A DNA stretch of 64,000 nt from Candidatus Palauibacter denitrificans (GCA_009841015.1 VXMQ01000009.1:9942-73941); one strand, 5' to 3'; positions 33,893 to 55,191 are shown, counted from the stretch's first letter. Notes: generated by a model from the sequence alone, not told the origin. Program-made: numbers and translations.

Positions 33893-33895
33893 CGC

Positions 33896-36166: not shown

Positions 36167-36182
36167 TGCAGCCGTGACCGGG

Positions 36183-37163: not shown

Positions 37164-37194
37164 CGGGCGTGGTATCGCTTGGCGGGGGCTCGGG

Positions 37195-40100
37195 TCAGGT
37201 GGATTTGAGGTCGGGAGCGGTGTCGGCGAGGGCGGCGTCCACGGCGGTGCGTTCCTCGTCCGATACGTTGCCGGTGAGCGTGACGGAGACCTCGAAGCCG
37301 AGTTCGGCGGAGCCGGCGGCGGCGAGGAGACTCGGTGCCCTGTCGGCCAATTCCTGTAGCTGTGCCACATCGAGTTTAGCGGCAGAAGACGGCGGCGGTG
37401 GTGACGGTGGTGCGTCCGTGCGCACTCTTATCTGGAGCTGTCTGGCCTGGTCGTACTCGCAGTTGGGGTCGACGCTTCCGTCCGCCAGCACGAGCCAGTG
37501 CGCGTTGATCGCAGCGCGGATTCCATCCCGCACGAGCCCCCAGGGAAGACTGGTTGCCCGTTCTTGCGAGAGCGCCTGCGCGATGGCGAGACCGTTCGCC
37601 GCGTCGTCTTGCCACGCAGCGGCTCGCATCGCTTCGGAGAGAAGATCTTGCGGCGTGAGCCGGTCCGGCGGCGGGCGTAGCATCGCCTTGTCGTTCAGCG
37701 CCCCAGCGGGCACCGGCTCTTTCCACGACGTGGCGGGTGGATTCGTGAGCCAGACTGTCCCGAGTTCAACGGCCTGCTCCACGGCTTCCAGCACCGTGTC
37801 GGCGGGGCAGGCTGGGACCGTGACCATATCGTCGTAGTGGTCGCGGGGGATCGTCGCGACGTGACCGCCCGCGAAGTAGTTGAGGAGCGTGGCCACCGGC
37901 AGGGCCGAACTGGCCTCGCCGCCGTCGTCGTCGGTCCACAGGCTGGGCAGCACTCCGGGAGCGAGCAGCGCCTCGGGCAGCCGGGTGAGTTCCGCCTTCT
38001 CAGGCAGGACGATCTCGAGCGCCTCATCTCCCGCAGCTTCCGCCTCCACCGATTCGCGCCACCACGTACGAAAGCTGCCGTCGGGCCGCCTCAGCCTAGC
38101 GACGAACAGGCCCTCCCGGACACCAGCCAACACCGTGTCGGTGACGAGCTTCGGCCTCAGTACCTTCGGGAGCCGCGGATGACGCGCGAAGGCGCCCGCC
38201 AACTGGCTGGCGAAACGGGCGTCCTCCCCCTCCTGCCATAGGTCGTATGGCCCCCCGGGAAGGAGGGCCTCGGCGTTCACCGGCGTATCCGTAAGGCGCG
38301 TCTTCTCGTGTCCCTTGATCTCCTCGAAGAGCGGCTGACCGCTGGCGGGGAGTTTGAAGGCGTGAACGCTGTTTTCTGCGTCCACCGTCACGACGATCCC
38401 ATAGGCTTGGCGAATCACGCTTGGCAACTCCGCCTGGGTGTTGCTCTTCTGGCGCCGGAGACGTTGCGACCGCACCGGATCCACCGTTTGGGTCGTGAGT
38501 TGCGATTCGACGTCCTCCCAACCGAGTAGCGCCCGCACTCGCGTGCGTGCCGCATCCAAACCCTCGCGCGACGGCACGGCGATGACCACCGCGTTGCGGT
38601 TCACGCGGGGCCGGTTCGAGCCCGTGGTCTCGTCGAGGAACTGCTTGGCGATTCTGCTCGGTTTTCCCGACTCCGACGCCGCGTCTGGGCCGAGGATCAC
38701 GTACCGGAAGCTGCCGTCGTCGCCGACCTCTCGCGGCGACTTAGGCAACATGTGCACAACGGCCCCGGCGGCGGCCGCGCCGCTCGTAAGAGGCTTCGTC
38801 TTACGGATCAAATCCTCCAGCCGCGCCTCCACCATGTCGTCAGTGACGCGGTCCTTGCATGCCTGGTCGTGCATCTGTTTCAGGTTGGGTGCGTTACCCA
38901 GGCGCCACGACTTGGGGAGGCCCCGCTCGGCCCCGTAGCTGGCTGCGTCGTCCCCGATGTCGGCGTCGTCAAGGAACCAGGAGGTGTCTCGCCAGCGGAG
39001 CAGCCCCTTCTCGAGTTCGATTCTGTCCGGACCCGCGCCGCCCACCAGACGCAGCAACTCGGGGGTGTGCGCCTTCTGGCCCACCGGCTGCGAATAGAGG
39101 AAGATGGCGACGACGGCCTGCTCCGCCTCGCGTTCCGGCTGAAGCGCCGAGCACTCACGCTGCACCTCCCGGGCCTTGTCCAATTCGGCCTCGAGCAGGG
39201 GCACCCATTCCGTCTTCTTGCCCTGCACGGCGTCCGTTGACGCGACGCCCGCGAGTTCCCGCACCGCCTCGGAGACGTTCGCGGAATCGGGTTCAGCGAG
39301 GAGAACGGCCGGACCGACCAGCGGACTCCGGTCCCATGACTCTGCGTCCCGGAGAGCCGTGGCGAGCGTACGCAGAATCCCGCGCGTGCGCTGGAAGCTC
39401 TCGATCTGCGTCCACCGGCTGTACAGAACGTCAGTCACGTCCGGGTGGAACGGAAAGCTGTGCAGGAACCGCTCCTCGGCCTCTTTCGTTCCGCGTCGCG
39501 TCGTTTCGTCAAGCTTGGCGATGCCCTTCACGATCCCGATTACCTGCGGCTTGTAGCTCTGCGGATCGCGGATGCTCTCGGACTCGAAGAAGCGGCGGCG
39601 AAGCACTTCCGCCACGTCCTCCCTCTGCACGGGCTGCACGCCCTCCTCGCGCTGACGGCGAAAGATGTCCGCGATGTCGCGAAGTATCTTCTTGCCAAGG
39701 GCATCGGTCATTCGCGACGGATCCGTGGCGAGGATGGATGCGACGATCGCCGCCCGGTCGATCTTCGTCACGGCCTGCGTGAGGTACTGGAAGAAGTTTC
39801 GCAGGTGCGCCACCCAATCCTCGGCCACCCCCGCCTTGGCGTGGGCGTACATCATGACTTCGTCCAGGAGAATGAGCGTGGCCGTCCCGTCCCGTTGCTG
39901 TCGCTCGATCAGCTTGACGAGGAGGGGCTCGGCCGGCGGCGTGTCGCGCTCCTCGTCCTCGTTGTTCGCGTGCAGCAGGCGCAGGCCCTCCGCCCCCGCA
40001 AGCTGGAACGCGAGCACGCTCCACGGGTGTTTGAGCGTCCGCCGCTCTCCGTCCGGGGCGCGCACGCCCTCAATGCCCTTCTCCACGTCGATCTTGTCGA

Positions 40101-40500
40101 AGCAGAGCGCTGCCGTGGCGGCCTGGGGAAGGCGGGAGTTCGCATGCTCACGGAACTCCCGCACAGCAGCGATGTCCGGCAGCCCGTCGGGGTCGTGGAA
40201 CAGGTGGTGGAGGGTGATGAGCGTGTGTGTCTTGCCGCCGCCATACGTCATCTCGAGCTGGCGGACAGCCTTGGTGTTCTGGCCCGCCAGTCGTCCCGCG
40301 ACATCCCTTACCAGCTCCCGCAGCGCGTGCGTGGGGTAGGTCAGCGCGAAGAACTTCTCCCGATCCTCGTAGATGGGCCGCTTCCCCGCCTCCGTGACCA
40401 CCTCGTGCAGGTCGGCGGCGAACTCGGCCAGCGAGAGCTCCCCCGAACGAAGTTCCGGCTTGAGACGAACGATCTGATGCCAAGGAACGAGATTCGACAT
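37195..40500 (-). CDS. DUF499 family ATPase (COG1483-like AAA+/P-loop protein)
   Basis: Internal ATG at 40500 (MSNLVPWHQIVRLKPEL). Walker A-like EMTYGGGKTHTLITLHHL and Walker B ATLILLDEVMMYA, 1101 aa. The N-terminal layout is typical of DUF499 as I recall it. Confidence 0.85.
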   Translation of the reverse strand: MSNLVPWHQIVRLKPELRSGELSLAEFAADLHEVVTEAGKRPIYEDREKFFALTYPTHALRELVRDVAGRLAGQNTKAVRQLEMTYGGGKTHTLITLHHLFHDPDGLPDIAAVREFREHANSRLPQAATAALCFDKIDVEKGIEGVRAPDGERRTLKHPWSVLAFQLAGAEGLRLLHANNEDEERDTPPAEPLLVKLIERQQRDGTATLILLDEVMMYAHAKAGVAEDWVAHLRNFFQYLTQAVTKIDRAAIVASILATDPSRMTDALGKKILRDIADIFRRQREEGVQPVQREDVAEVLRRRFFESESIRDPQSYKPQVIGIVKGIAKLDETTRRGTKEAEERFLHSFPFHPDVTDVLYSRWTQIESFQRTRGILRTLATALRDAESWDRSPLVGPAVLLAEPDSANVSEAVRELAGVASTDAVQGKKTEWVPLLEAELDKAREVQRECSALQPEREAEQAVVAIFLYSQPVGQKAHTPELLRLVGGAGPDRIELEKGLLRWRDTSWFLDDADIGDDAASYGAERGLPKSWRLGNAPNLKQMHDQACKDRVTDDMVEARLEDLIRKTKPLTSGAAAAGAVVHMLPKSPREVGDDGSFRYVILGPDAASESGKPSRIAKQFLDETTGSNRPRVNRNAVVIAVPSREGLDAARTRVRALLGWEDVESQLTTQTVDPVRSQRLRRQKSNTQAELPSVIRQAYGIVVTVDAENSVHAFKLPASGQPLFEEIKGHEKTRLTDTPVNAEALLPGGPYDLWQEGEDARFASQLAGAFARHPRLPKVLRPKLVTDTVLAGVREGLFVARLRRPDGSFRTWWRESVEAEAAGDEALEIVLPEKAELTRLPEALLAPGVLPSLWTDDDGGEASSALPVATLLNYFAGGHVATIPRDHYDDMVTVPACPADTVLEAVEQAVELGTVWLTNPPATSWKEPVPAGALNDKAMLRPPPDRLTPQDLLSEAMRAAAWQDDAANGLAIAQALSQERATSLPWGLVRDGIRAAINAHWLVLADGSVDPNCEYDQARQLQIRVRTDAPPSPPPPSSAAKLDVAQLQELADRAPSLLAAAGSAELGFEVSVTLTGNVSDEERTAVDAALADTAPDLKST

Positions 40501-40510
40501 GGAGCCTCGC

Positions 40511-40672
40511 CTATGCGAGCAAGTCCACGGACAGGCAACCCTCAACCGCCTCGCGGACGTCTTGCAGAAGTTCGTGGAGTGACTCGCCCTGGGATACGCA
40601 CCCCCGGATAGCCGGCACTTCGGCCCAGTAGCCGCCTTCCTCTGCCCGATGAACAACGATCTTCAGTATCAT
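40511..40672 (-). CDS. HicB-like (UPF0150) small protein, 53 aa; not in the supplied ORF track
   Basis: My own translation is MILKIVVHRAEEGGYWAEVPAIRGCVSQGESLHELLQDVREAVEGCLSVDLLA. GGAGGTG lies 3 nt upstream of ATG 40672. TAG stop at 40511-40513, 10 nt before the DUF499 ATG. The pattern E-x-GGY-x-AEVP-x(3)-GC-x-SQG matches the HicB N-terminal domain. Confidence 0.65.
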   Translation of the reverse strand: MILKIVVHRAEEGGYWAEVPAIRGCVSQGESLHELLQDVREAVEGCLSVDLLA

Positions 40673-40788
40673 GACACCTCCACCTCATCCCGGTCTTGCC
40701 CGGGCTCAACCGGGGTGGCAACCCCCGCAATACCCTAGGGAGCACACGCTTTTTTCGGGTAAGCAACGTCCAGCAAAGTACCGATCGC

Positions 40789-43700
40789 TCAGAAGAGCGA
40801 CCTCTGCGCCGGCGCTGCTCGCGACCCTTGGGAGGATGTTGCCGCGCTCCCGTCGCGCAGGTGGTTCTGCACCGATTCCAGCAGCGCCCGCTCCTCAGAG
40901 CCGCGTTCGGCCAGCTCGATAATGGCCTGCACCACGCTGGCGAACAGTTCGTGCTTCCACAACCCGCGGTCGCTCAGGTAGTTGTTGACGCGGGCCTGTT
41001 CTCCGGTCTTCCAGAGTTGCATGACCCTGTGCACGCAGTCGATGAGCGGTGGGGGCGCGCCATCAGGCATGGGCTGACCCAAGCGAGTGCCGCCCCGTTG
41101 GTTCCAACCCTTAAGGCGCACCGCACTGCCCGAGGTCGGTGCTCCCTCCGAGCTCTCCTCGTCGGACGTGGCGGCCGAGCTCCTCCCCCCGCGGGCGAGA
41201 AGATCATGCCTGCTCGCCAGGTCGGCGTCGGACAGGTTGCACGAGAGCGCGTACAGGATGCACGCGCCGGCGGGGGCCGCCTCCGAGCCGAAATCGTTGC
41301 GGTGCAGCAGGTAGTAGGTCGTGACGTCGTCCAGCTCCGTCGCCTCGCCGTTCCGTTGAGAGAGCAACTGGCCTACGATGAAGCCGACCACCATGCGTCG
41401 GACGTGTCGCAAGAAGTCGGCTACGGTCAGAACCTCACCTGGCCGGTCGGCTCGCTTGACGACCGGATGTCGGCTGAACGCCTCCAAAGCGGGTCCGGTG
41501 GCCGACCACACGAAGTCGGGTCCGCGAATTCCCGCATCCCAGAAGTCGCGTAGCCGTTGCGTGATTCTCTTCCGCATCTCGGAGAGGACGTTACGCTCCC
41601 ATCCGGGACGCCCTGGTGCCGAGCGTTTCCGGCACACGAGCCAAATCGACGACGCGAGAGCGGCGGAGGACATGGCGCGCTGCCGGGTCTGCATCTCGGT
41701 CTGAATCGGCCACGAGCCCGTCACCACGAAGCCCGCCCGGATCAACGCTGACACAAGCGTTTCCCACGCATCTGGGCTCTTGTTCGCGAACACAATGACC
41801 AGCCGCCCATCGTCGCCGAGGGCATCGTGGAAGCGACAGAACGCCCGAGCCATCCCATCTTCGTAGTTGTGCTTGGAAGCTTCCGTGTCCCCCTCGAAAC
41901 GGCTCGCGTCGTCGATGAGTTCGCCGTCGGATGCGCCCGGCTCCCACTTCGGACCCAACGGGTCGGCGAAGGCCGAGTCCGTGACGGACGAGAGACCGTG
42001 TAGAACGCGGCGAAGCCAAACCTGAAAGAAGTCCATCAGGTCAGAGTACGGGATCGCATCGTAGTAAGGCGGGTCCGTGCAAATCACGTCGAGACCGTTC
42101 GGCTGGGCGGCGATCGCGCTCCGGGTCTCAACTTCCACGGAGGGTGCATGCGACCCGGCGGGCAGGACATGGTCAACGCAACGCGCGACCCAATCGAGCA
42201 TGCCCTTGAACCCACCGGTCGTGGCGGACAGCGGGTTCACCTCGCAATAGTCCCATACCATCGGTGGCGCGAAGCGCACGAACGTGTGGCCGAGCTTTTC
42301 TCCGCTATTGTGCCACGAGCAGACCGCACTGCTGTAGTCGGTCAGCTTGCTGAACGCACATGCTAGGTATGCCGTCAACGCCCCCGGCCAATCGTCCAAG
42401 TTGCCGTCCATTTCGGCGCAGACGGAGCGGATCTCGCGTACGAACGTCCCCAATGCGAGCAGTTGACGGCGAGTGAACAGTTTCTCCCAAGAGTCGAGGC
42501 CGTAGCCATCAACCGAAAACGCACGAGAAGCACCAATTCCGGCTTTCGGGGTTGGCTCGTCGGGTGTGCCGAAAGGCACATCCGAATAGAGCGCGTCGAG
42601 TTCGCTCTGGCTCACGCCAGCGGCTTCGATGTCTCGCTCGGTGGGGGGGCGATACTCCTTGCCGGTCTGTCCAGCGAGGACCACGGCCGTCATCCGCGCT
42701 CCCAGTCGTCCCGACCGCCCTTGGGCGCGCAACTCGGCCATACTGGTCACGGCCCCGCAGTTCGGGCACCCGACTCCGCTAGAACTCATCGTGCCAGCGC
42801 CGAGGGATTCGTCGTGTCGCCGCCGCTGAGCGACCGATCCCGATCCCTGCGGCACGTCCGGCTCCACGCCGAACTCGACTCCGCTTCCATCGGCCCGTTT
42901 CGTCATCGTCAAGAGGACACGCTTGGCAGGGTTGGTCTTCTTGCATAGCCAACGCGTCTTGAGGAGCGGGATCTCGGCTCGACAGCCGCCGCACTCGGCG
43001 GTGCGCGCCCACAGATAGGCCACAACCGGCTTGACCACCCAACGCGGGTTGTTGTCGTCCTTCAGGTAGACTTCGTCAAAGTCGGCGTTCAGCGCCTCAG
43101 CCGTTACACGCCCGTCCGCATCCGGCTCGAGCAGACGAGGCACTCGCCGCTTGTATGGCTTGGGTTCCGCCTGCGACGCCCGCGACCGGCCCTTGCGCGG
43201 CACGGGCTCGAACTCGGCGTAGGTGGGGTATCGGGCGGCCAACTTCCGCCTCACGTTCTCTAGTACGCGAAGTCCCCACGCTCGGACGTGCCAGGCGAAA
43301 TCCGCCTTGACGTTGGCGTCGTCTCGAAGCACGGATGAGGAGATCTGCACGTCACCGCCGTCGCGGTGTCCCAGTTCGGCGAGCGCGTTTCTGATCTGAA
43401 CCTTCGTTCGCGCACCGCGCGACTTCACCAACGCGGTAGCGAAGTCGCGGTCTCCGAGCGCGAACTCTGGAAGCGGCCTCTCTTCTCGACCCACCAGCCG
43501 CGGGTAGTGGAGCGTGCAGCGCAGTATAAACCACGCCACGGGATTCAGGTCGGAGGCGAACGTCTCGCACCCAAGCCGCATCGCCTCCAGCGGAATCGCG
43601 CCGCCGCCCGCGAACGGATCCAGCACCCGTGGCGCCCGCCCGCCGAACGCCTCCCGTATCTCCTCCCGCAGACGATCCAACTCGGGATCGGTTTCTCGCC

Positions 43701-43995
43701 CCCAGTGCAGGATGCCGCCCGCCGTCTCCTTGAGTTTTGGATCCTCCCCTCCGCCCCTAAGCTCCTTAGGCACCAACCGCCCCGCGATGCGCCGCCCCAG
43801 CCTGCGCCGTCCCTCGTCGTCACCGGGGTCGGGCAGCAGAGTGGCCAGTAGCATGGCTCGGCTTGCCGCCAGCGGCCTCCGCGCCGGCCATATATGCAGC
43901 GTGGAGATGTGCCCGTGCCGCACGTTCTTCTCATGCACCGAGTCCAACGAGATTTGCCGCAGCGGCAGCGTCGCCTCAGCCAGACGTGCCATCAT
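40789..43995 (-). CDS. DUF1156 domain DNA methyltransferase (COG1743-like amino-MTase with Zn-ribbon inserts)
   Basis: DUF1156 signature HEKNVRHGHISTLHIWPARRPLAASRA, AdoMet motif VLDPFAGGGAIPLEA and catalytic VICTDPPYYD. Cys pairs ECGGCRAE and VGCPNCGAV. ATG 43995 shares ATGA with the KAP stop. The track ORF starts at GTG 44004. Confidence 0.9.
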   Translation of the reverse strand: MMARLAEATLPLRQISLDSVHEKNVRHGHISTLHIWPARRPLAASRAMLLATLLPDPGDDEGRRRLGRRIAGRLVPKELRGGGEDPKLKETAGGILHWGRETDPELDRLREEIREAFGGRAPRVLDPFAGGGAIPLEAMRLGCETFASDLNPVAWFILRCTLHYPRLVGREERPLPEFALGDRDFATALVKSRGARTKVQIRNALAELGHRDGGDVQISSSVLRDDANVKADFAWHVRAWGLRVLENVRRKLAARYPTYAEFEPVPRKGRSRASQAEPKPYKRRVPRLLEPDADGRVTAEALNADFDEVYLKDDNNPRWVVKPVVAYLWARTAECGGCRAEIPLLKTRWLCKKTNPAKRVLLTMTKRADGSGVEFGVEPDVPQGSGSVAQRRRHDESLGAGTMSSSGVGCPNCGAVTSMAELRAQGRSGRLGARMTAVVLAGQTGKEYRPPTERDIEAAGVSQSELDALYSDVPFGTPDEPTPKAGIGASRAFSVDGYGLDSWEKLFTRRQLLALGTFVREIRSVCAEMDGNLDDWPGALTAYLACAFSKLTDYSSAVCSWHNSGEKLGHTFVRFAPPMVWDYCEVNPLSATTGGFKGMLDWVARCVDHVLPAGSHAPSVEVETRSAIAAQPNGLDVICTDPPYYDAIPYSDLMDFFQVWLRRVLHGLSSVTDSAFADPLGPKWEPGASDGELIDDASRFEGDTEASKHNYEDGMARAFCRFHDALGDDGRLVIVFANKSPDAWETLVSALIRAGFVVTGSWPIQTEMQTRQRAMSSAALASSIWLVCRKRSAPGRPGWERNVLSEMRKRITQRLRDFWDAGIRGPDFVWSATGPALEAFSRHPVVKRADRPGEVLTVADFLRHVRRMVVGFIVGQLLSQRNGEATELDDVTTYYLLHRNDFGSEAAPAGACILYALSCNLSDADLASRHDLLARGGRSSAATSDEESSEGAPTSGSAVRLKGWNQRGGTRLGQPMPDGAPPPLIDCVHRVMQLWKTGEQARVNNYLSDRGLWKHELFASVVQAIIELAERGSEERALLESVQNHLRDGSAATSSQGSRAAPAQRSLF

Positions 43996-45341
43996 TCCTG
44001 CCACAGCAGATCGATGTCAGCGCAAATCTCCGCCATCTCCCTGCGCCCGCTGTAGAAGGTGGCCGAACTCCAATTCGCCCGTTCCTCCGCTGTCAAGTGC
44101 TCCTCCCCGTCGGCTGCCGAAAACGTCCAATACCGTTTGATCCTGTCGATGGTCTCTTCTCCAACACCTGGCCATTGGTCGAACTTCAGGAACGCCATCG
44201 CATCCCGATATCCGAGTCGCTCGCGTGCGGCGTCGTGATAAAGTTCGGGTGCCAGGGTTCGCATGACGCACAGCCCAGCGGAAAGGGCCCGGTGGATCTC
44301 GTTCGGGAATCCTCCCTTGCTCCTTTTAAGCAGCGCCAGGTTTAGCATTAGCCGTTCCTGGCTACGAAACGTAAGGTCGTGGACTTGAACGAGACTGTTG
44401 ATTGTCATCGTCGGGTTTTGGCCATGATTCCAAGACAGGCCCATCAGTTCCGCGAGGTGTCGGAGATACCGCGTGTGAGATGTCTCGGGTCCGCGGCTCA
44501 AGATCCTTCGAATGTCGAACCGAAGCTGGAAGAACTTATCCAGATACTGGTCGGCTTTCTCAAGGCCGTATGCCCGCTTCACCATGGCCGCCAACCCCTC
44601 TAGGTGGGTCACGAGCACGAAGCAGATTCCGTCCACGGTGAAGAGGTGCTTGACACGTTCGAGCACGTTCAGGGCGTAGGACGGGCGGCATCGATCCAGC
44701 TCGTCAATCACGAATACCAACGGCGCCTTGCCTTGCTCACCGTCACCCGTGTTGGCGACGGCGGCGGCGAGTGCGTCTCGGAAACCGTCGACACATTCCA
44801 CCTGAGTCGCGGCCTGCTCGAGAGATTCCTCGACAAACGCCTCAATGTCGTCCGTTTCGGCTGACCTCGCGTCCCGTACGTGCTGCTGAAGGTCGGCCAG
44901 CGACAAGAGGCCGCCGGTGCCGGTGCGCAGGGCCGCGTCTGCCACGATGCGGGGCATCGCCCGCACGAGAGGCGTCGCGGTTCGGACGAGAGATGCCTTG
45001 GAGTCTTTCAAGCGAGGGCCGCTCGAATCGGATGCCTTCAGGAGGTGGCCGAAGAGGGGGAAGAACGCGTCGTCGAGGTGATCGTGCTCAAAGGCATCGA
45101 AGTACACGACGGCGTGTCCGCGCTGCCGGAGTAGGCCTGCCCACTGTCTGGCGAATACGGACTTGCCGCTTCCCCAGGGTCCATCGAGAACGATAACGGC
45201 ATGGCCCGCGAGGTCGCCGACGATGTTGGCAAGCCGTTCACCGGGCGCCTTCGCTTGGAAGATATCGGACTTCTCAAACCCGGCGGTGTCACCGATGTCG
45301 AGGGGCCTCGGCGCGAGAAGGAGTTTGGCGGAACGACTCAC
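43992..45341 (-). CDS. KAP family P-loop NTPase
   Basis: Walker A VLDGPWGSGKSVFA and Walker B LVFVIDELDRCRPSYAL. GTG 45341 shares GTGA with the upstream stop. Confidence 0.85.
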   Translation of the reverse strand: MSRSAKLLLAPRPLDIGDTAGFEKSDIFQAKAPGERLANIVGDLAGHAVIVLDGPWGSGKSVFARQWAGLLRQRGHAVVYFDAFEHDHLDDAFFPLFGHLLKASDSSGPRLKDSKASLVRTATPLVRAMPRIVADAALRTGTGGLLSLADLQQHVRDARSAETDDIEAFVEESLEQAATQVECVDGFRDALAAAVANTGDGEQGKAPLVFVIDELDRCRPSYALNVLERVKHLFTVDGICFVLVTHLEGLAAMVKRAYGLEKADQYLDKFFQLRFDIRRILSRGPETSHTRYLRHLAELMGLSWNHGQNPTMTINSLVQVHDLTFRSQERLMLNLALLKRSKGGFPNEIHRALSAGLCVMRTLAPELYHDAARERLGYRDAMAFLKFDQWPGVGEETIDRIKRYWTFSAADGEEHLTAEERANWSSATFYSGRREMAEICADIDLLWQE

Positions 45342-47320
45342 GGCTTCCCGTCGATTCCGAAGTCGTGCGCCAGGGCTGTCAGCAGATCGTCCAAGTCCGA
45401 GGCGTGTGTCCTTGCTTTGAGGTAGTCGTCGTAGCTGGCCTCCGCTTGCTGCACGAGTTCGTCGTAGGTGACGTATCTTGCCCCGATCGCATCGAGTATT
45501 CGACGGTTGCCTTCCGGGTCATCCTGTGGCGTCGGTGCCGCACCGAGAACGGCGACGCACTCCACGTCGCGCGGCTCCCCCTGGTACTTGTCTCGTAAAC
45601 ACTTTTGCAGGGCACGACGGTACTTTTGCAACTGCTTCACGAGATCGGCGGCGTTGACTCGTGCGTCGTATCGCTTCAGTTCCACGATTACATGCTTCCC
45701 CGGCACCGTCTGGAACCTGATGTCAATCCGTCCTCGTCGCTCCTCCTCGCTGAGGCCAGCGTCGATCTTCTCAAACTCCGCACCGACCGTCTCCTCCATG
45801 CGAGGCACCGTCGCAGCCCGTTCCCAGGACGGGTGAAGGAGCCACAGATGGTTGAAGAGGTGCTCCTGCAACGCTCTTTCCAAGGCGTTCGGCACGAGAT
45901 TTCGCAACGCTTGGATCACCTTCAGACGCCCCTCGACGATGTCCCGGTAGCGCGTCGCTTCGATCTCGTCCACTCCGGTCATTAGACGGGCGAGAAGATC
46001 GAAGTCGCCCACCGTCTCAACGTGGTCCAGCGCGCTGAGCATGTCTTTGAGGGCCAACTTCTCAAATGCGAGAATCGACGCACGATACAACTCGTATTTT
46101 CGCTCATCTTCGTCGAGCCGCAGCGCCTCGATCTTGACGAACAGTCGCTTGGCCGTCCGCTGCGTGTCGGGCCCCCTTCGCTCGTACCAGGCCTTCACCG
46201 AAGGGTACTCGAGGGCCCTCTGCACTCCAGCCTGTTTCCGCTTGCGGTCCCACTCGTCCCGAATCGAATGAAGGGCTTGGTTCACGACCGTCTTAACGGC
46301 CACGTATCTTGCGTCGTCCTGCTGGACTCGTTGCCTGCCGCTCGTGATGATGTCGTCGTTGTCATCGTCGAGGAAATCCGCAATGACCTCGCCAACGACA
46401 TACTCGGTGTAAACGCGCGCTTGACGGTATTCGGGGAGCATATCCTCGTGAATCAGCCGGCCGCGGGCCGAGAGGACAACCGCGTTGTTTACGTCGTCCA
46501 GTTGGCTGGGCTTGCGGACGGTGCCGATGAAGCCGCGGATGGCGTGCTCAACGGGCGGGCCTCCATTCGGCGGCAGGATGGGCACAACATTTGGTAGGAC
46601 GCCGGCGCCGTCGCCCGATGGTGCCCTGGAGAAATCCCAGTCATCTGCGGGGTCGCCGAAGTACCAGATGAACTCCATGTCATTGAAGTAGTCGCGGTCA
46701 TCGAGGGTTATCGGGTCACCGTCGATGGACACGTCGAAACCGTGTTTCTCGCCAATAACGCTGAATCGGCGCGCCAAGCGGCGGCGCAGGTGATCTGCGG
46801 CCCAGGAGGGCCGCTTGCGAAGATCCGTAAGGCGGATCAGCGTGCCTCGGTCACTCTCCTCAACGAGGCAATCGATGGGCTCGGGGAAGTAATTCCCGCC
46901 CGTACGGGCGGCCTCCTCGATGTCCCTCGTGTTCATTCGGAACGCGTGTACCGATTCCCCGTCGGAAGTGTGGACGTCAACGGTGTCGGCGATGGAGAAC
47001 GCCGCGAGTTTCCCGATTCCCTTGCGCCCCATGACAGTGCGGCCGTCTGGAGTCTCGGCGTGTTGTAGGCGACGCTTATAGCCGACGGTGAGGAACTTGG
47101 AGTTGATGTCGTGGAGGCTCATGCCGTGTCCGTCGTCGCGGATCCGGATCGAAGGCGTCTGGTGATCGAAGTCGATACGGACCCGGCTCGCGTCGGCGTC
47201 CCATGCGTTAGCAACGAGTTCCGACAGGACGGCAGGTATGTTGCTATAGAGCCCGATGCCCAGGTGTTGGAGAACATCGAGACTAATCGTCATCTGAAAG
47301 GGGCGGTCATCGTGGGTCAT
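45338..47320 (-). CDS. GHKL (HATPase_c, MORC/Hsp90-like) ATPase with a C-terminal PD-(D/E)xK-like module
   Basis: N box LSELVANAWDADAS, G1 IRDDGHGMS and G2 GRKGIGKLAAFS. The C-terminal GRIDIRFQTVPGKHVIVELKRYD fits D...E-x-K. ATG 47320 shares ATGA with the C5-MTase stop. Confidence 0.8.
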   Translation of the reverse strand: MTHDDRPFQMTISLDVLQHLGIGLYSNIPAVLSELVANAWDADASRVRIDFDHQTPSIRIRDDGHGMSLHDINSKFLTVGYKRRLQHAETPDGRTVMGRKGIGKLAAFSIADTVDVHTSDGESVHAFRMNTRDIEEAARTGGNYFPEPIDCLVEESDRGTLIRLTDLRKRPSWAADHLRRRLARRFSVIGEKHGFDVSIDGDPITLDDRDYFNDMEFIWYFGDPADDWDFSRAPSGDGAGVLPNVVPILPPNGGPPVEHAIRGFIGTVRKPSQLDDVNNAVVLSARGRLIHEDMLPEYRQARVYTEYVVGEVIADFLDDDNDDIITSGRQRVQQDDARYVAVKTVVNQALHSIRDEWDRKRKQAGVQRALEYPSVKAWYERRGPDTQRTAKRLFVKIEALRLDEDERKYELYRASILAFEKLALKDMLSALDHVETVGDFDLLARLMTGVDEIEATRYRDIVEGRLKVIQALRNLVPNALERALQEHLFNHLWLLHPSWERAATVPRMEETVGAEFEKIDAGLSEEERRGRIDIRFQTVPGKHVIVELKRYDARVNAADLVKQLQKYRRALQKCLRDKYQGEPRDVECVAVLGAAPTPQDDPEGNRRILDAIGARYVTYDELVQQAEASYDDYLKARTHASDLDDLLTALAHDFGIDGKP

Positions 47321-48543
47321 GCGGCATACTCGTGGATGTGGGCGTGGATGACGTCCCCGATAGCGGCGGCGAGGCCGACTGGCACGGCGTTACCGATGTG
47401 CCGGCCGACGCGGGCGAACCACACCGGGTCACCGGGTGCAGTGAAGGCGTATCTTGCCGGGAAACTCTGCAGTAGAGCTGCTTCGCGGAGGGAAATCGCG
47501 CGGTCCTGCTCCGGGTGGCCGAATCGGCCGCGACCGAAGGAAAAACACCCCGTAGTCAGCGTGGGAGAAGGCTTGTCCCACTCCATGCGCCCGTAGACGT
47601 TCTTGTAGCTGGCGCCCGTGCTTCGCTGGTGGCATGGCGATACAAGGTCTGGATCATCCCATTCGGACCATGTCTTACCGGGCTTCGCCGCGCGGATTCG
47701 CCGGAGGTTTACCGGTGAGAGCCTCGACGAACGGTGCAACCCGTCCTCTGCGTCCACGTCCCCGGCATCAAGAGCGGGCATGTGCGCTATGGCGTCGCGA
47801 ACCGATGCGCGCTCGGCGACCGTGGAGGCCGGAACGTCGATGGGGCCCATCTTGGAGGCAACGACCACAAGGCGGCTGCGATCCTGCGGAACGCCGTAGT
47901 CTGCGGCGTTCACCACTTCGGCCGACACGTCGTATCCTGCGCCCTCCAGTCGCTCCAGAAACCCGTCGAACACCCGCCGCCCAGCGAAAGACCTGAGGCG
48001 CGGCACGTTCTCCATCGATATCACTTCAGGTTTGACAACCCCGATTCGATCCATGAAGAGGTCGACAAGCGACCATTTGTCTCGGGGTTTACCCGGTCCG
48101 GCGCTATAAGAGGAAAAGGGCGTACAAGGAGCACATCCGACCAGAATGCGGCGGGACCCCTCCGGAAAAAGCGATGCGACCTGCTCGCCGGACACCTCCT
48201 CCAGCGGCCGTCCCACGAAGGTCGCCTCGTTGTTCGTTTCGAAGGCGTACCGGCACGTTTCGTCGGCGTCCACTCCCGCGACGACATTGAGGCCGGCCCG
48301 GCGCAGTCCATGGCTCAGGCCTCCGATACCGCAGAAGAGATCGACGACAGCCCACTCGGACACGGTCGATTGAACCACGCTGGATTCTCCCGGGCAGCCA
48401 GGGGACACGGCCTCGCGCGAGAGCGGTTCCCCATCTGGGGCCGGGTCGAGCCGCGCAATCTCAGCTCTCGTGTCATTCACGTCATTCAACCGTCGTTCTC
48501 CGTCGGTCGCTTTCCGAGCAGGTAAGTGCAGAACGCGGCGCAA
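47317..48543 (-). CDS. dcm: DNA (cytosine-5)-methyltransferase
   Basis: Motif I VDLFCGIGGLSHG, motif IV GCAPCTPFS, motif VI SMENVPRL, plus QSFP and GNAVPV. The start is uncertain: TTG 48543 (58-nt overlap with the upstream gene) or GTG 48480 (5 nt after its stop). Confidence 0.93.
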   Translation of the reverse strand: MRRVLHLPARKATDGERRLNDVNDTRAEIARLDPAPDGEPLSREAVSPGCPGESSVVQSTVSEWAVVDLFCGIGGLSHGLRRAGLNVVAGVDADETCRYAFETNNEATFVGRPLEEVSGEQVASLFPEGSRRILVGCAPCTPFSSYSAGPGKPRDKWSLVDLFMDRIGVVKPEVISMENVPRLRSFAGRRVFDGFLERLEGAGYDVSAEVVNAADYGVPQDRSRLVVVASKMGPIDVPASTVAERASVRDAIAHMPALDAGDVDAEDGLHRSSRLSPVNLRRIRAAKPGKTWSEWDDPDLVSPCHQRSTGASYKNVYGRMEWDKPSPTLTTGCFSFGRGRFGHPEQDRAISLREAALLQSFPARYAFTAPGDPVWFARVGRHIGNAVPVGLAAAIGDVIHAHIHEYAA

Positions 48544-49484
48544 GCCGGAATCATGAACGCGGCTTCCGCTCGCCCAAGTCGGTCACTCGTGTCGGCCCCC
48601 CCGTGCCGTACTCCTGGCTCGTTAGAAGCCCACCCGAAGAGCTTCTCCATTGCGGAACAGAATGCCGGGTGAGTGTTCCAGTCCCTCTGCATCGTTTCGA
48701 GAATCGTGCCAAGCGGAGCCTTTCCGGGGACCAAACTCTTCGCCAGAGACTCAACCGCCGAGATACTCTCGTGCACGCTCTCTCGCCATTGCCCATCTCG
48801 CAACAACTCCTCGGCACGCCGCAAGTGCCCGCCCGCAGCAGGGTGCTCAGCCTCTGTAAGGCTCCGGCGCGCTTGCTCGATGGCGTGCCGTTCCTGCGCG
48901 TTGGCGGCGAAAATTATCGTCGGCGAGCCGTCCGTGTCGACGAAGTACGGCACGCCGTCCTCGTTGAACGCCGCCTTGACGTTCTGGATAAACGACGGGG
49001 GGCACTGCTCGTGTCTCATAGCTTCTTCCAGCAGGTCTAGAAGACGATTGCCCGGTGCGCCAACGAAGAATGGCCCAAATGCCTCAAGTACCTTTTCAAC
49101 GGCCGTGCCGCGATGTCCAAGGAAAGCGTCGTGGGCGGCAAGGTTGTCGCTTGAAACGCAGAGGTGCCTTTGTGCAAGCCGGGTGGCGATCTGTTCCCAT
49201 CCGCCCGCGAGAAGAACCGGTGCGTACGTTCCCGTCGCGGGGTCGGCTACGGCTGCTTGGCGTGTGGTTTCGGCGAATAGGCCCCAGAGGCCCAGCCGTA
49301 CGTGAGCTTGCAACTCCGCTGGCCCGGGACGACCGCGCGGTTTCTCCAGTCCGTCTGCCTGCGAGGACGGGGTCTCGCGGGAGTCAGGGCCCACGAAGCC
49401 GTCGGTCATTGAATCGCCGCTCGTAGGCGCGGGGTCCGAGCCGGCCTCGCCGGCACCTGGCCGCCGTCTATCGCCGGTTCTCAT
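48486..49484 (-). CDS. Hypothetical helical protein, HEPN / Abi_C-like C-terminal region (tentative)
   Basis: ATG 49484 shares ATGA with the helicase stop. The C-terminal ESISAVESLAK...FGWASNEPGVRHGG resembles the E-[ST]-x-x-K ... RN-x5-HG layout of Abi_C/HEPN domains, but the Arg position reads Ser. Confidence 0.45.
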   Translation of the reverse strand: MRTGDRRRPGAGEAGSDPAPTSGDSMTDGFVGPDSRETPSSQADGLEKPRGRPGPAELQAHVRLGLWGLFAETTRQAAVADPATGTYAPVLLAGGWEQIATRLAQRHLCVSSDNLAAHDAFLGHRGTAVEKVLEAFGPFFVGAPGNRLLDLLEEAMRHEQCPPSFIQNVKAAFNEDGVPYFVDTDGSPTIIFAANAQERHAIEQARRSLTEAEHPAAGGHLRRAEELLRDGQWRESVHESISAVESLAKSLVPGKAPLGTILETMQRDWNTHPAFCSAMEKLFGWASNEPGVRHGGADTSDRLGRAEAAFMIPACAAFCTYLLGKRPTENDG

Positions 49485-52400
49485 GTCCCGTCCTCCGCTG
49501 CTCCTAGCACTTCGCCGACGGAGATGTTCCAGCGGCTCGTGATCGTTGCGATCAAGCGGTTGAAGGGGTCTCGAATGCATACAAGCTGCGGGTTGGAGGC
49601 CGCGCAACCGTAGACCACGTAGAGCCAGAACTCGTCGCCCAGGTGGCAGGCAGCCCTCCACTCGTTGTCCTCCATGCGAATCTCGGCTCGGCCCGCGCGG
49701 CCCTTGACCTCGATGTGCCGCTTGCTGCCGTCGGGCCGCGTCGCGAGCAGGTCGAAGCCCGGGTAGTCGCCCAGGCCCGCTGCCCGTGCTCCGCTCGGTC
49801 GGGAGACGTCCACCACGGTAGCCCTCCGTGCGCGCTCCCACTCGGAGGCGATGCGCATGGCGGTCGCCTCGACGCGCGCGTCAAAGGCCTCGATGTCTTC
49901 GTCGCCGCGGGGCGGGAGGGCGATCGCCAACGCGCGGAAGCGAGGCTCCCCGGGAACGATCCGTCGCGCTGCGCCCTCGAGTTCCTGGACGGCGACCGAC
50001 CGCTCCAGACGGAGGTTGGCCTGTTCCTGCTTCACAGCGTCCAGGTCTTCCGGGTCTGCGTCGGGGTCGCGCGACAGTGCCGAACGACGGCTGGCGGCCT
50101 CCGCCGCTCGCAGGTTGAGGCTTAGCGTGATTCGCGCCCGGCGCTCGGGAATCGCGTCGCGAACCATCTCGCGCCGGGCCTCGGCCACGCGCTGCGCCTC
50201 CTTGTGCAGGTAAGCGTTTGTTTCCGCGCGCAGGGTGACGGCCCGGGTCGCGAGCGGGACAGTACCAGGGGGCACATGCCGCGCCTCCTGGAGGAACGCG
50301 AGGTATTCGAGAGGCAACGGGGCGATCCGGCCGTCCTCGCCTTGTCGGAGACAGTTGATCCGCTGCTCCAATGTCCGGCGTGCTCGGACATCGGGGGCGG
50401 TCTCATCCTCCGCCTCCTCCAGCACGGCCAGTTCACCGAGGTGAACGAGGTAGGGGTCTTCGGCCTTGGGGTCGATGAAGATCGCCCCGCGCTGGGCGTC
50501 TCTCTCGCAAATCGCCAGGACGCGGGCGCACAGAGCGTCGAAAACGGGTTCGCCGGGGTGGAGCCAGATGCACGGCTCGTCGCCTTCGGGACGCCGCACG
50601 CGCAGGCCGTCTCGGGCCTCGGGCGGATAGGCTTCCAATGCGGGGAGCAGCGGATCCAGCGCGCGCCCGCGGTTTGGAACGAGCGCGAACACATCGTTCA
50701 GGTCGCCGAAAACGTCGAGTCCCAGCAGCGGTGCCGACCGTTCCACGAACCGCAACACCCACGCGGGGAGCAGGTGCAGGTAGCGTTCGCGCTCCATCTC
50801 GCCGCGCAGTGTGCCCAGGCGGCGGGACACGTCGCCGCCTGGACCGTAGTGGTGCGCGTCGTCCTCCTCGATGCCGCGCACCTCATCGCTGCCGAGTCCG
50901 GACATTCGATCGCGCGCCCGCCGCTCCCCCTCGTCCGTCAGCGTGTCGCGCATGTATTCGACTAGCGAACGGTTCTCGAACATCCGCCCGATCACGTCAA
51001 AGACCTTGTCCGACCGCAGCTCCCGGCGGATCGCCTCCAGCCTCTCCAGCAGCACTTTGAGGACGCGTCCCTCCCGCGTGTCGGTGGAGACGAGGTTGAA
51101 GATGCGGACGTCGTGTTCCTGTCCGTAGCGGTGGATGCGACCCATACGCTGCTCGAGACGGGCCGGGTTCCACGGGATGTCGTAGTTCACCATCAACCGG
51201 CAGAACTGGAGATTAATCCCCTCCCCGGCGGCGTCGGTCGCGACCAGGAAGCGGGCGCCGGATGGATCCCGGAAGCGCTCCACCGCCTCCTCCCGCTCGG
51301 GCCAGCCCATGCCGCCGTGGATCGTGGCCACCCGGCCCGCGTGCCCCAACGCCTCCAGACGCCGCACAAGGTAGTCGGCGGTGTCGCGGTGCTCGCTGAA
51401 CACGAGCCACTTCTCCTCCGCGTACTCGGGACTCTCCAGCAGTTCACGCAGCCGCTCGAACTTCGACTCCCGTCCCGAATCGATGAGGTGGCGCGCACGG
51501 TCCCTGAGGTCGCGCAGCGTCTCGATTTCCTCCCGCAGCTCCTCGACGGTGACCGCGACGACCGCGCCGAGTACCGCGTCCTCGTAAGCCTCGCTTCGCT
51601 CTCGTCGCCGGTCGTCGGGCTGGTCATCGGCCGAGTCGAATGTGTCGAAGAAATCCGCATCGAATTGCCGGTCGAGCCCCGCCTGACGCCGTCCGAGCGA
51701 GGCTGCGTCGATGCGCCCAGTCTCGAGATCGGCGATCAATGCCTTGACCTTTTGGATGCGGCGCTCCAGAGACGTGAGCAGCGCCCACGTCGAACTGGCC
51801 AGCCGTCGCTGGAACACGCCCATGGCGAGCTTGACGGCCTGCCGGTTGTCCATGGCCCGGCCGTACGAGCCGAGCAGGTACTCCGTCGTGCGGTCGTACA
51901 GCGCCCGCTCGCCGTCCGGCCCCTCCGTGAGGTCGTAGCCGAACGTGTCGCAGCGGCGGTTGCGGAAGATCGGCTGACCGTTGAAGTCGACCATCTCCTC
52001 CTTGGTGCGGCGAATGAAGTGGCGCGACCGATCCTCGGGCGGGAAGCGCCGCCACGCCTCCTCCGCGCCGAACACGCGGTGGTCCAGGAGCCGCCACAGA
52101 TGATGGTACGGGGAGTCCTTCCCCATGTGGGGCGTGGCCGTCAGGAGCAGGAGGTGATGCGCCGACCACTTGAGGGACGCCCAGTCGGGCTCCGTCGAGC
52201 CCCCGTTCCCGCGCCGGAGGCGCATCCGTCCCGGCGTACCGGACGAACACCCCGCCAAGGCCTCGGCGAGCTTGTAGCGCTGGGTCTTGTCGGTGCGACC
52301 GCCCGAGGTCGTGGCGCTCAGCTTGTGCGCCTCGTCAAAGACTACGAGGTCGTAGGGTGTCGTGCCCGGCTCGGTCAGCCTCCCGAACGCCGCGCCGCCC

Positions 52401-53128
52401 CGCAACGTGTCGAGCGAAACGACAACGCGGTCGCCACCGGATCCGGCGAACGGATTTCCGGCCCGGGCGTCGTCCCCTGACACGATGCGGAAGTCGAGCC
52501 GGAACAGAGTACGGAGTTCGCGCTCCCAGTTGCCCACGAGCCCAGCCGGAGGGACGACCAGCACGCGCCGGATTCGTCCGCGCATGAGCATCTCGCGAAC
52601 GTAGAGTCCGGTCATGATCGTCTTACCCGCGCCCGCGTCGTCCGCGAGCAGGAAGCGGAGTGGTTCCTGTTTGAGCATGTGCTCGTAGACCGCGATCCGC
52701 TGGTGGGGCAGGGGATGGATGCGCGAGATCTCGCTCGCGAATGCCGGATTGAACTGGTAGCCGTGCGTCAGCCGGAGCCCCTCCACAAAGAGGGAGAGCC
52801 GGTCCGGGTCACCGTTGAAGTCGAGGAACGGCGGATCGCGGACGTCCTGGCTCGCCTCTCGGATCACGTGGGTCCCGTCGCCGTATCGGGGGCGGTGCCG
52901 AGCCATGTCCAGCGCATGTTGCTCCTCCAGTTCGTCCAGACGTCGCAACGCGAGTCTCCTCGGGCTAGACTGCCCCGTCTCCCACCGGTGGACCGTGATG
53001 ACCGATACGCCGAGTCGCTTGGCGAAGCCCTCCTGGGTGAGCCTCAACCCGCGTCGAAGGCGACGAACGCGAGCCGGGATCGTCGGGCCTGCCGGGTCCG
53101 AATGCGACGCATCGAAATGTGAGGACAT
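49481..53128 (-). CDS. HTH(XRE)-SNF2 family helicase with a C-terminal DUF3883 (restriction-endonuclease-like) domain
   Basis: Internal ATG at 53128. HTH LRLTQEGFAKRLGVSVITVHRWETGQSSP. Helicase motifs LLADDAGAGKT, VVFDEAHKL, LLTATPHMG and QRMGRIHRYGQ. DUF3883-like GFDLLATRPDGSKRHIEVKGRAG...EFWLYVVYGC. The track ORF extension 53129-53464 is antisense to the Phd gene and was rejected. Confidence 0.9.
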   Translation of the reverse strand: MSSHFDASHSDPAGPTIPARVRRLRRGLRLTQEGFAKRLGVSVITVHRWETGQSSPRRLALRRLDELEEQHALDMARHRPRYGDGTHVIREASQDVRDPPFLDFNGDPDRLSLFVEGLRLTHGYQFNPAFASEISRIHPLPHQRIAVYEHMLKQEPLRFLLADDAGAGKTIMTGLYVREMLMRGRIRRVLVVPPAGLVGNWERELRTLFRLDFRIVSGDDARAGNPFAGSGGDRVVVSLDTLRGGAAFGRLTEPGTTPYDLVVFDEAHKLSATTSGGRTDKTQRYKLAEALAGCSSGTPGRMRLRRGNGGSTEPDWASLKWSAHHLLLLTATPHMGKDSPYHHLWRLLDHRVFGAEEAWRRFPPEDRSRHFIRRTKEEMVDFNGQPIFRNRRCDTFGYDLTEGPDGERALYDRTTEYLLGSYGRAMDNRQAVKLAMGVFQRRLASSTWALLTSLERRIQKVKALIADLETGRIDAASLGRRQAGLDRQFDADFFDTFDSADDQPDDRRRERSEAYEDAVLGAVVAVTVEELREEIETLRDLRDRARHLIDSGRESKFERLRELLESPEYAEEKWLVFSEHRDTADYLVRRLEALGHAGRVATIHGGMGWPEREEAVERFRDPSGARFLVATDAAGEGINLQFCRLMVNYDIPWNPARLEQRMGRIHRYGQEHDVRIFNLVSTDTREGRVLKVLLERLEAIRRELRSDKVFDVIGRMFENRSLVEYMRDTLTDEGERRARDRMSGLGSDEVRGIEEDDAHHYGPGGDVSRRLGTLRGEMERERYLHLLPAWVLRFVERSAPLLGLDVFGDLNDVFALVPNRGRALDPLLPALEAYPPEARDGLRVRRPEGDEPCIWLHPGEPVFDALCARVLAICERDAQRGAIFIDPKAEDPYLVHLGELAVLEEAEDETAPDVRARRTLEQRINCLRQGEDGRIAPLPLEYLAFLQEARHVPPGTVPLATRAVTLRAETNAYLHKEAQRVAEARREMVRDAIPERRARITLSLNLRAAEAASRRSALSRDPDADPEDLDAVKQEQANLRLERSVAVQELEGAARRIVPGEPRFRALAIALPPRGDEDIEAFDARVEATAMRIASEWERARRATVVDVSRPSGARAAGLGDYPGFDLLATRPDGSKRHIEVKGRAGRAEIRMEDNEWRAACHLGDEFWLYVVYGCAASNPQLVCIRDPFNRLIATITSRWNISVGEVLGAAEDGT

Positions 53129-53251
53129 GGCGCCAAGGTCGCCTACCTTCGACCTCTCGTCAAGCCAGGGTCGCGCCCGCTTCGCGTGTAACCTATCATT
53201 TGTTATGTTTCGAGCGACGCTAGATTCACGTGCGCGGCGAAACGGTTGGCC

Positions 53252-53275
53252 GCGATACGGCGAGGCGATACGGCG
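53252..53275 (+). promoter_or_regulatory. Tandem 11-nt direct repeat upstream of the Phd/YefM gene (candidate operator)
   Basis: gcgatacggcg occurs at 53252-53262 and again at 53265-53275 (13-nt period), 26 nt before ATG 53301. Confidence 0.3.
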
Positions 53276-53300
53276 GCTCCACACAGGATCGAGGGAATCG

Positions 53301-53546
53301 ATGCGCACGGTTGAAATCCATGACGCCCGGAAGCACCTGTCCCGCCTCGTCCAGGAGGCGGCGGACGGCGACCCGTTCGTCATCACGCGGGACGGCAGGC
53401 CGTTGGTCGAGGTGGTGTCGATCAGCACGCCGGGGCCCGCGACGGCTCGCCGAACCGGATTCATGGTCGGCGAAATCGCAGTTCCGCCGGACTTCGATCG
53501 AATGGGATCGACGGAGATCGAGGCGCTGTTCGACGCCGATCCGTAG
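53301..53546 (+). CDS. Phd/YefM-family type II antitoxin (VapB-like), no cognate toxin gene
   Basis: MRTVEIHDARKHLSRLVQEAADGDPFVITRDGRPLVEVVSI and a C-terminal VPPDFDRMGSTEIEALF tail. GAGGGA lies 5 nt upstream of the ATG. It is followed only by 16 nt before a convergent gene. Confidence 0.8.
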   Translation: MRTVEIHDARKHLSRLVQEAADGDPFVITRDGRPLVEVVSISTPGPATARRTGFMVGEIAVPPDFDRMGSTEIEALFDADP

Positions 53547-53562
53547 CCTGGCCGGGTCGGGG

Positions 53563-53883
53563 TCAGCCGCCGCTGACGGCGGGGAGGACCACGAGTTCGG
53601 CGCCATCGGTGACGGGGGTGTCCAGGCCGCTCAGGAAGCGGATGTTCTCGCCGTCCACGAAGATGTTCACGTGAGGCCGCAGGTGGCCGCGTTCCGTGAT
53701 CAGGCGGTCGCGGACGCCGGGGTGGGCGGCGCCGAGTGCGGCCAGGATATCCCCGACCGGGGCGGGCGCGCCGGGGACATCGACCGTGGAGCGCCCGCCC
53801 GTGAACTCCGTCAGCGCGGCGGGCAGCGTCACGCGCACGAGGCCGGCGGCAGGCGTCCCGGCGGCCAGCGTCCCTGCGGACAT
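53563..53883 (-). CDS. MoaD/ThiS-family ubiquitin-like sulfur carrier protein
   Basis: 106 aa ending in VLPAVSGG (C-terminal Gly-Gly). ATG 53883 overlaps the upstream stop (TGATG). Confidence 0.8.
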   Translation of the reverse strand: MSAGTLAAGTPAAGLVRVTLPAALTEFTGGRSTVDVPGAPAPVGDILAALGAAHPGVRDRLITERGHLRPHVNIFVDGENIRFLSGLDTPVTDGAELVVLPAVSGG

Positions 53884-55007: not shown

Positions 55008-55105
55008 GATCCGTCCCCTCGTTCTTCACAAGTCGCTTCGCAACCGTAGTACGTCGCTTCGCGGCCGAAGTTGCCGGCGGCCAATGTACCATGCGGGTGC
55101 GGCCG

Positions 55106-55164
55106 GGGTGCGTCGGCCCGCGGCCAGGGTGCGTCGGCCCGCTGACGAGGTTGCGTTGGCCCGC
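55106..55164. repeat. Three tandem copies of a 16-nt motif in a divergent intergenic region
   Basis: gggtgcgtcggcccgc occurs at 55106-55121 and 55127-55142 (identical, 21-nt period). ggttgcgttggcccgc occurs at 55149-55164 (2 mismatches, 22-nt period). Confidence 0.7.
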
Positions 55165-55191
55165 CGACGGCGGGGCCGTATCATCCGGCCC

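Follow-up and report, generated by a model that had tools for sequence, protein, structure and literature searches.

What are four additional genes doing in the middle of a phage-defense operon? The question arises in a 64,000-nucleotide (nt) stretch of DNA from a Candidatus Palauibacter-like (Gemmatimonadota) genome, called the window below and the reference for all coordinates unless a locus is named, where the minus strand from 53128 to 37195 carries a single tightly packed row of genes. The Hma system contributes the outer genes of this row, namely its three components hmaA, hmaB, and hmaC, and the gap of about 5.5 kb between hmaA and hmaB (49484 to 43992) is filled by four open reading frames (ORFs) on the same strand: g1, a C5 cytosine DNA methyltransferase (Dcm), a GHKL protein, and a KAP NTPase. 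A first-pass annotation, made from the sequence alone, had located these ORFs exactly and assigned all four domain types correctly (HEPN-like, C5-methyltransferase, GHKL-nuclease, and KAP), as confirmed by Pfam, PADLOC, NCBIfam, and homologs. It treated them as one integrated cassette and offered several readings, of which a captured, Dcm-linked restriction module riding in the operon fits what we found. Most probably the stretch is three autonomous modules, an AbiJ-like protein, a restriction-modification (R-M) pair, and KAP, set in a known variable slot of the Hma operon; that is, a stacked operon rather than a composite machine.

The company kept by the GHKL protein elsewhere is informative about which of the four genes belong together. 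Using one genome per species, we surveyed 80 loci that encode a relative of this protein (38–90% identity) and that come from numerous phyla of bacteria and archaea. In 56 of them, the gene immediately upstream, on the same strand, encodes a C5-methyltransferase, and a gene for a Vsr mismatch endonuclease is found nearby in 30. Hma genes surround the pair at three loci (L005 and L007 from Candidatus Palauibacter, and L012 from a gammaproteobacterial metagenome-assembled genome) and adjoin it at one more (L076). No KAP relative was detected at any of the 80 loci, and relatives of g1 were detected at two (L005 and L006). The free-standing unit is thus methyltransferase plus restriction enzyme (M-R), with or without Vsr, and not the set of four. 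The proposal that the GHKL protein serves as effector of a larger machine is not supported, since the protein is a complete type II restriction enzyme in itself and, across many phyla, is found paired with its own methyltransferase in the absence of Hma. The restriction enzyme of L012 is 62–64% identical to free-standing gammaproteobacterial and Rhodothermaceae enzymes, compared to 51% for those of Palauibacter, which argues for separate captures. Among the surveyed loci, four GHKL enzyme paralogs (L035, L042, L046, and L077) come from a single genome, that of the archaeal sponge symbiont Cenarchaeum (uncultured Cenarchaeum sp., OY282369.1); three of these have no detectable C5-methyltransferase within 10 kb, and the nearest to L046 is about 5 kb away.

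Close relatives show the same modularity at a single chromosomal site. Several contigs share the position of the window operon, with ThiS, rhomboid, leuA, and leuB flanks at 82–90% nucleotide identity and Hma proteins 72–91% identical to those of the window. Read from hmaA to hmaB, the window has g1, Dcm, GHKL, and KAP; L007 has Dcm and GHKL; L001 and L005 have Dcm, GHKL, an ORF of 118 amino acids (aa), and a g1 relative (g1'); L003 and L165 have a small ORF, Dcm, GHKL, KAP, and g1'. The modules also differ in how similar they are to their window counterparts: identity is 89–90% for the GHKL protein and 78–87% for Dcm, but only 66–67% for KAP, where it is present at all, and only 49–55% for g1', which moreover occupies a different slot from g1 of the window; for Dcm, GHKL, and the Hma genes taken together, the range in close syntenic relatives is 78–91%. 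These values and positions speak against a single integrated four-gene cassette. In a more distant relative (L168; hmaA 70% and hmaB 73% identical), a KAP gene (46%) is kept before hmaB, the restriction enzyme is absent, and a remnant of 36 residues, 75% identical, is left of Dcm; evidently a deletion removed the R-M pair and left Hma in place. The region concerned (L168, 4996–10521) also holds a zeta-toxin-like gene in addition to the Dcm remnant and KAP, and its hmaB is split into ORFs of 78 and 982 aa, possibly by a frameshift or as a pseudogene.

A second survey, centered on Hma, included 80 metagenomic loci whose HmaB is 50–70% identical to that of the window; hmaA is also visible in 66. 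The distance between hmaA and hmaB in these 66 ranges from 18 to 4749 nt and is below 200 nt in 11, leaving inserts in 55. The occupied gaps reproduce the published finding that 66.5% of hma operons carry insertions (PMC11232893). The inserts fall into more than 25 unrelated clusters, and include AAA_21/AAA_15 with OLD-TOPRIM, AAA_14 with DUF4143, NYN, TIR, Cap15, GmrSD_N, UvrD, Schlafen, DUF3800, and Hypoth_Ymh families. None of the 66 gaps contains a Dcm-GHKL pair, and one (L131) contains a g1 relative, alone. We considered whether g1 might be a regular fourth component of Hma, as the position of g1' directly before hmaB in relatives could suggest, and rejected this because only one of the 80 other Hma loci has g1. 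Two expectations of the first-pass annotation change with these numbers. It had regarded two methylases in one operon as unusual; insertion between hmaA and hmaB is the rule both here and in the published set. It had also argued for integration of the cassette, and the genomic part of the refutation test that it set itself came out against integration: homologous loci commonly lack the cassette, and the M-R pair stands free elsewhere.

Taken over all loci, cargo varies at no fewer than three points of the Hma scaffold: behind hmaA, in front of hmaB, and in the hmaB-hmaC spacer. In this genome, the first two are occupied by g1, the R-M pair, and KAP. The last of these is empty in the window (40657–40788). 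At L003 and L165 it holds a HicB-like gene of 53 aa (L003, 17768–17929), and at L001, L005, and L168 an AAA_15/AAA_21 ATPase gene together with one of 156 aa (L001, 17654–18733).

The two central genes constitute a type II R-M pair of the usual kind, belonging to the BbrUII/HgiDII family. The enzyme (45338–47320, minus strand) matches the NCBIfam equivalog model NF050001 with 702.1 bits against a cut-off of 550, aligning residues 8–650 of 660 with profile positions 1–659, and also matches PADLOC REase_II (1e-91) and HATPase_c_3 (2e-19). Its layout is an N-terminal GHKL ATPase with transducer, a helical linker, and a C-terminal nuclease. An alignment of 18 family members shows invariant ATPase residues (E34, N38, D62, G64, G66, and a GRKGIGK box) and, toward the C-terminus, invariant nuclease residues D533, E547, and K549. 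A sequence search of solved structures returned matches to the GHKL domain only, with no relative of the entire enzyme. Foldseek results for the full AlphaFold2 model are dominated by the ATPase module (Hsp90, MutL, and SMCHD1; E 1e-12); we therefore assigned the nuclease domain from motifs and family-wide Pfam matches. PDDEXK_4 is found in 15 of the 18 members and SduA_C in 7, and the model has helix and beta-strand segments around D533, E547, and K549 that are compatible with a PD-(D/E)XK core. On these grounds, the C-terminal domain of HgiDII-family enzymes is a PD-(D/E)XK nuclease. The N-terminal GHKL domain of R.HgiDII was noted in 2008, when the C-terminal domain was left unassigned (PMC2441816). 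R.HgiDII is a type IIP enzyme, and M.HgiDII is an m5C methylase recognizing GTCGAC (PMC5867850).

The methyltransferase (47317–48489, minus strand; PF00145, 9e-51; TIGR00675 above cut-off) has all C5-methyltransferase motifs in view: FCGIGG, PC, ENV, QDRSR, and GNAVP. Its start is ambiguous among TTG 48489, GTG 48480, and GTG 48408, and relatives have nothing corresponding to the first 43 codons, with similarity beginning at 48355. A conserved ORF of 85–90 aa lies directly upstream of Dcm in Palauibacter relatives and in the gammaproteobacterial locus, not in the window (L003, 8647–8904, where it overlaps Dcm by 4 nt; L012, 8591–8860); it has no confident family match and could be an R-M control protein.

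The first of the four genes, g1 (48486–49484, or from 49409; minus strand), matches the PADLOC candidate PDC-S32 (6e-35). Among 17 homologs of 28–55% identity, AbiJ_NTD4 (PF18863) is found in 8 (best 1e-25) and Abi_C (PF14355) in 13; g1 itself has no AbiJ_NTD4 match in Pfam. The AlphaFold2 model (pLDDT 77.5) finds HEPN domains as its best Foldseek matches (1ufb, 3o10, 4nqf, and 1o3u), with probabilities of 0.89–1.0 and target TM-scores of 0.48–0.63, but with weak E-values (0.15–0.6). By homology and predicted fold, we take PDC-S32 to be an AbiJ-like HEPN protein, with an AbiJ_NTD4-type N-terminal and an Abi_C-type C-terminal domain; the earlier label was right, and AbiJ-like is more precise. 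Relatives of g1 also occur in other defense settings. At L006 the order is M-R-AbiJ, on a 9-kb contig in which no Hma gene was detected, and at L169 a relative (36% identity) is inserted in a type I R-M operon, where it lies between hsdS and hsdR and overlaps the end of hsdS. The same operon has small DUF433-, PIN-, and HicB-like genes between hsdM and hsdR (L169, 4836–6855) that resemble toxin-antitoxin components.

KAP, the last gene before hmaB (43992–45341, minus strand), matches PF07693 with 104 bits against a cut-off of 20 (8.7e-30) and PADLOC PDC-S20 (6e-60), and has an intact Walker A (GPWGSGKS) and Walker B (VFVIDELD). A homolog at L167 stands alone among transporter genes, and this solitary occurrence argues against the proposed role of KAP as effector or sensor of a larger machine.

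Base composition and junctions were both part of the original case for the cassette. The four inserted genes are indeed lower in GC, but the difference had been overstated: over whole genes it is 0.61–0.64, compared to 0.66–0.68 for hmaA, hmaB, and hmaC. GC at third codon positions (GC3) is 0.69–0.75 in the inserted genes, 0.78–0.84 in the Hma genes, and 0.74–0.96 in flanking housekeeping and backbone genes. The two outer 4-nt overlaps fared differently. That between the KAP stop and the hmaB start is real (ATGA, 43995–43992). At the hmaA stop, the ATGA is present in the sequence (49484–49481) and preceded by GGAGGA, but whether it is a gene overlap depends on the start chosen for g1, because the public gene call (P0121, 307 aa) and the relatives begin at ATG 49409, 75 nt downstream, and residues 1–51 of the long form are modeled as disordered. 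Further 4-nt overlaps are found at the inner junctions Dcm/GHKL (47320/47317) and GHKL/KAP (45341/45338), and at g1/Dcm if TTG 48489 is the Dcm start. Other signals at the edges were not informative. A promoter and terminator scan of 36000–54000 gave no excess over chance (2 promoter-like sites, with 1.8 expected) and nothing of use at the module edges on the minus strand; a search for repeats or recombination sites flanking the cassette brought up no more than short, imperfect matches at chance level; and there are no tRNA genes in the window that could be integration targets.

We propose that the modules were brought together by recombination in the hmaA-hmaB slot. The overlapping stop and start codons make it likely that they are co-transcribed with Hma and translationally coupled, with each module probably working alone. 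The C5-methyltransferase would mark host sites (GTCGAC in the founding enzymes of the family), and the GHKL-ATPase/PD-(D/E)XK enzyme would cut unmarked DNA. The AbiJ-like HEPN protein is a presumed RNase-type abortive-infection effector, and KAP (PDC-S20) a candidate single-gene defense protein. The result would be m5C-based restriction, m6A-based Hma, and two probable abortive back-ups, layered in one operon. A second self-mark (m5C in addition to m6A), as suggested earlier, follows trivially from such stacking; a joint reading of the two marks is unsupported.

Several observations weigh against a stack of autonomous modules with these identities. For g1 itself, the Abi_C match is at E = 0.042, below the Pfam threshold, and its invariant motif is an adjacent pair (R293-H294, in GVRHG) rather than the canonical Rx4-6H. 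For the R-M pair, GTCGAC as the target is suggested by family membership alone, and the window contains 44 such sites where 48 are expected (ratio 0.92), which is no sign of avoidance, although frequency is an indirect test only. The arrangement of the genes also leaves room for more than stacking. The M-R pair is kept in this slot across Palauibacter lineages about 30% apart in protein sequence (L007), and is found in the same slot in the gammaproteobacterial L012. All junctions in the window can be read as 4-nt overlaps, in relatives there are looser spacers of 80–180 nt, and tight junctions that fit co-expression would also fit a shared complex.

The retention of the pair across diverged Palauibacter lineages makes a real partnership between R-M and Hma conceivable, and functional integration is the rival that survives best, if still an unlikely one. 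On this view the R-M pair, possibly together with KAP and the HEPN protein, would have been taken into service as auxiliary or back-up effectors in communication with Hma: sensing by Hma, or its helicase activity, could license the GHKL nuclease, for instance, or HEPN and KAP could fire once a phage inhibits Hma or R-M. In that case all genes of the operon would act in coordination, as a single layered system. Besides the conserved slot and the run of overlaps, this idea can draw on L168, where KAP again lies directly upstream of hmaB, and on the argument that nucleases are retained non-randomly in BREX-related loci as back-up effectors (PMC12839542). It must also accommodate that every module is found by itself elsewhere, that the R-M pair is missing from all 66 other related Hma loci, that relatives have lost or swapped g1 and KAP and in one case deleted the R-M pair while keeping Hma, and that no docking-type domain for Hma proteins was seen in any of the proteins. 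We would give a similarly low probability to a further idea, in which this Hma lineage has the HgiDII-type R-M pair as a lasting partner, selected together with it, retained in the hmaA-hmaB slot by Palauibacter species and captured there in a gammaproteobacterium as well. The two might then cooperate, for instance through double marking (m5C and m6A) that closes escape routes, and the AbiJ-like HEPN and KAP would serve as exchangeable abortive back-ups that come into play once one of the two is inhibited.

Mobility and addictiveness are established traits of type II R-M pairs, and with GC3 below that of the host backbone and a Dcm remnant in the L168 slot the pair could be selfish cargo flanked by inactive remnants and adding no working defense, but this is very improbable given four intact, full-length ORFs with catalytic motifs preserved in the methyltransferase, restriction enzyme, and KAP, a restriction enzyme that scores as a full-length equivalog, and its 89–90% conservation among relatives without frameshifts, which indicates purifying selection.

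The host operon itself belongs to Hma, also described as type-1 DUF499-centered BREX-related: it has an SNF2 helicase-nuclease, a DUF1156 methyltransferase, and a DUF499 ATPase. The name Hma goes back to Payne et al. (2021; PMC8565338); the system was shown to provide anti-phage defense via the HmaA helicase-nuclease (PMC11232893), and has recently been re-described as a type-1 “DUF499-centered BREX-related” system (PMC12839542). In the window, hmaA (49481–53128, minus strand; PADLOC HmaA, 1.5e-163) encodes an SNF2 helicase with an N-terminal XRE-type HTH and a C-terminal NOV_C/PD-(D/E)XK nuclease, with Pfam matches to Helicase_C, SNF2-rel_dom, NOV_C (3e-15), and HTH_31. Its ORF can be extended to 53464, and relatives of 1223–1225 aa align from residue 1 of the form starting at 53128. 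The N6-adenine-type methyltransferase hmaB (40789–43995, minus strand) matches PF06634 (5.6e-18) and PADLOC HmaB (9e-109), and NCBIfam DUF1156_antiphage below the model cut-off. The DUF499-like AAA+ ATPase hmaC (37195–40656, minus strand) matches PADLOC HmaC (2e-70) and DUF499 (1e-16), and NCBIfam DUF499_antiphage at 2e-24, which is below cut-off; the Pfam search gave no match, and the protein is 88–91% identical in syntenic relatives. Two other systems were considered and set aside. The DISARM matches (DrmD and DrmMII) reflect generic SNF2 and C5-methyltransferase similarity, with HmaA and type II methyltransferase models scoring as well or better; the top PADLOC matches of the eight ORFs include no DrmB or DrmC, and the DrmA label is generic helicase similarity on hmaA. 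MADS matches (mad2 and mad8) are likewise generic, and its core genes are absent.

The surroundings of the operon contain a few further ORFs. Directly after hmaC is an ORF of 395 aa (36183–37370, minus strand) with the lowest GC3 of the row (0.69); searches of Pfam, PADLOC, and NCBIfam gave no match for it, and the syntenic relatives lack it. Convergent with the operon on the plus strand (33182–36166) are an NYN-domain gene (33182–33892) and a NACHT/STAND NTPase gene (33896–36166), with a low GC3, like the cassette; this pair is probably a further defense module of the same island. On the other side, a long ORF (53563–55917, minus strand) has GC of 0.88 at first codon positions and GC3 of 0.64, and only its last ~90 codons (53563–53830) match ThiS. 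In relatives, ThiS has a gene of its own in this region, beside one of BNR/sortilin-like type, and the ORF as a whole is probably not real. The 435 nt that separate ThiS from ATG 53128 (53129–53562) are where the operon promoter would be expected.

The locus reveals no new mechanism. Its value is as a worked example of a defense operon used as a landing pad: in closely related, sponge-associated bacteria, one and the same chromosomal site carries an unchanging Hma scaffold in which modules are swapped in three slots, among them restriction, HEPN, KAP, toxin-antitoxin, and ATPase genes. Two annotations are gained as well, in that the C-terminal domain of HgiDII-family restriction enzymes, long without an assignment, can be named and the PADLOC candidate PDC-S32 placed among AbiJ-like HEPN proteins. 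The occurrence of defense genes between hmaA and hmaB was already known, as were the families of the R-M pair and of the AbiJ/HEPN protein and the KAP candidate; the combination of an R-M pair with an AbiJ-like HEPN and KAP is not described in PMC11232893 or PMC12839542, and neither mentions GHKL, KAP, or C5-methyltransferase cargo.

The R-M pair and g1 can be set beside known systems. As in other HgiDII/BbrUII systems, the window has a full-length equivalog restriction enzyme with an N-terminal GHKL domain and a C5-methyltransferase directly upstream, here with a 4-nt overlap. Unlike them, the pair lies inside another defense operon rather than free-standing. There is no Vsr gene in the window, although 30 of the 80 family loci have one. 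AbiJ-type HEPN proteins (AbiJ_NTD4 plus Abi_C) resemble g1 in its probable two-domain layout, in a predicted HEPN-like C-terminal four-helix fold, and in a tendency to settle inside R-M-type operons, as at L006, L169, and L131; g1 differs in its Pfam scores, which fall below the thresholds, and in having GVRHG in place of Rx4-6H.

The arrangement as a whole is closest to published hma operons with cargo. In Halomonas, Septu lies between hmaA and hmaB, in the same slot and orientation as the window genes, and the hmaA stop and first cargo start form the same kind of 4-nt overlap (PtuA 2,893,866 and HmaA 2,893,863; PMC11232893). There, too, the cargo is a recognized defense system, and known hma operons share with this lineage a second variable slot between hmaB and hmaC. 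The difference is in what is carried: Septu, PARIS, Ppl, an AAA_21 pair, or GmrSD in known operons, and an R-M pair with an AbiJ-like HEPN and KAP in the window. The auxiliary restriction enzymes and stand-alone HEPNs embedded in BREX-related loci, termed “back-up effectors,” are likewise comparable, with a stand-alone HEPN and a PD-(D/E)XK restriction enzyme inside a type-1 BREX-related core locus (PMC12839542). That study reads such genes as integrated back-up layers, whereas the evidence from this locus and its relatives points to interchangeable, autonomous cargo.

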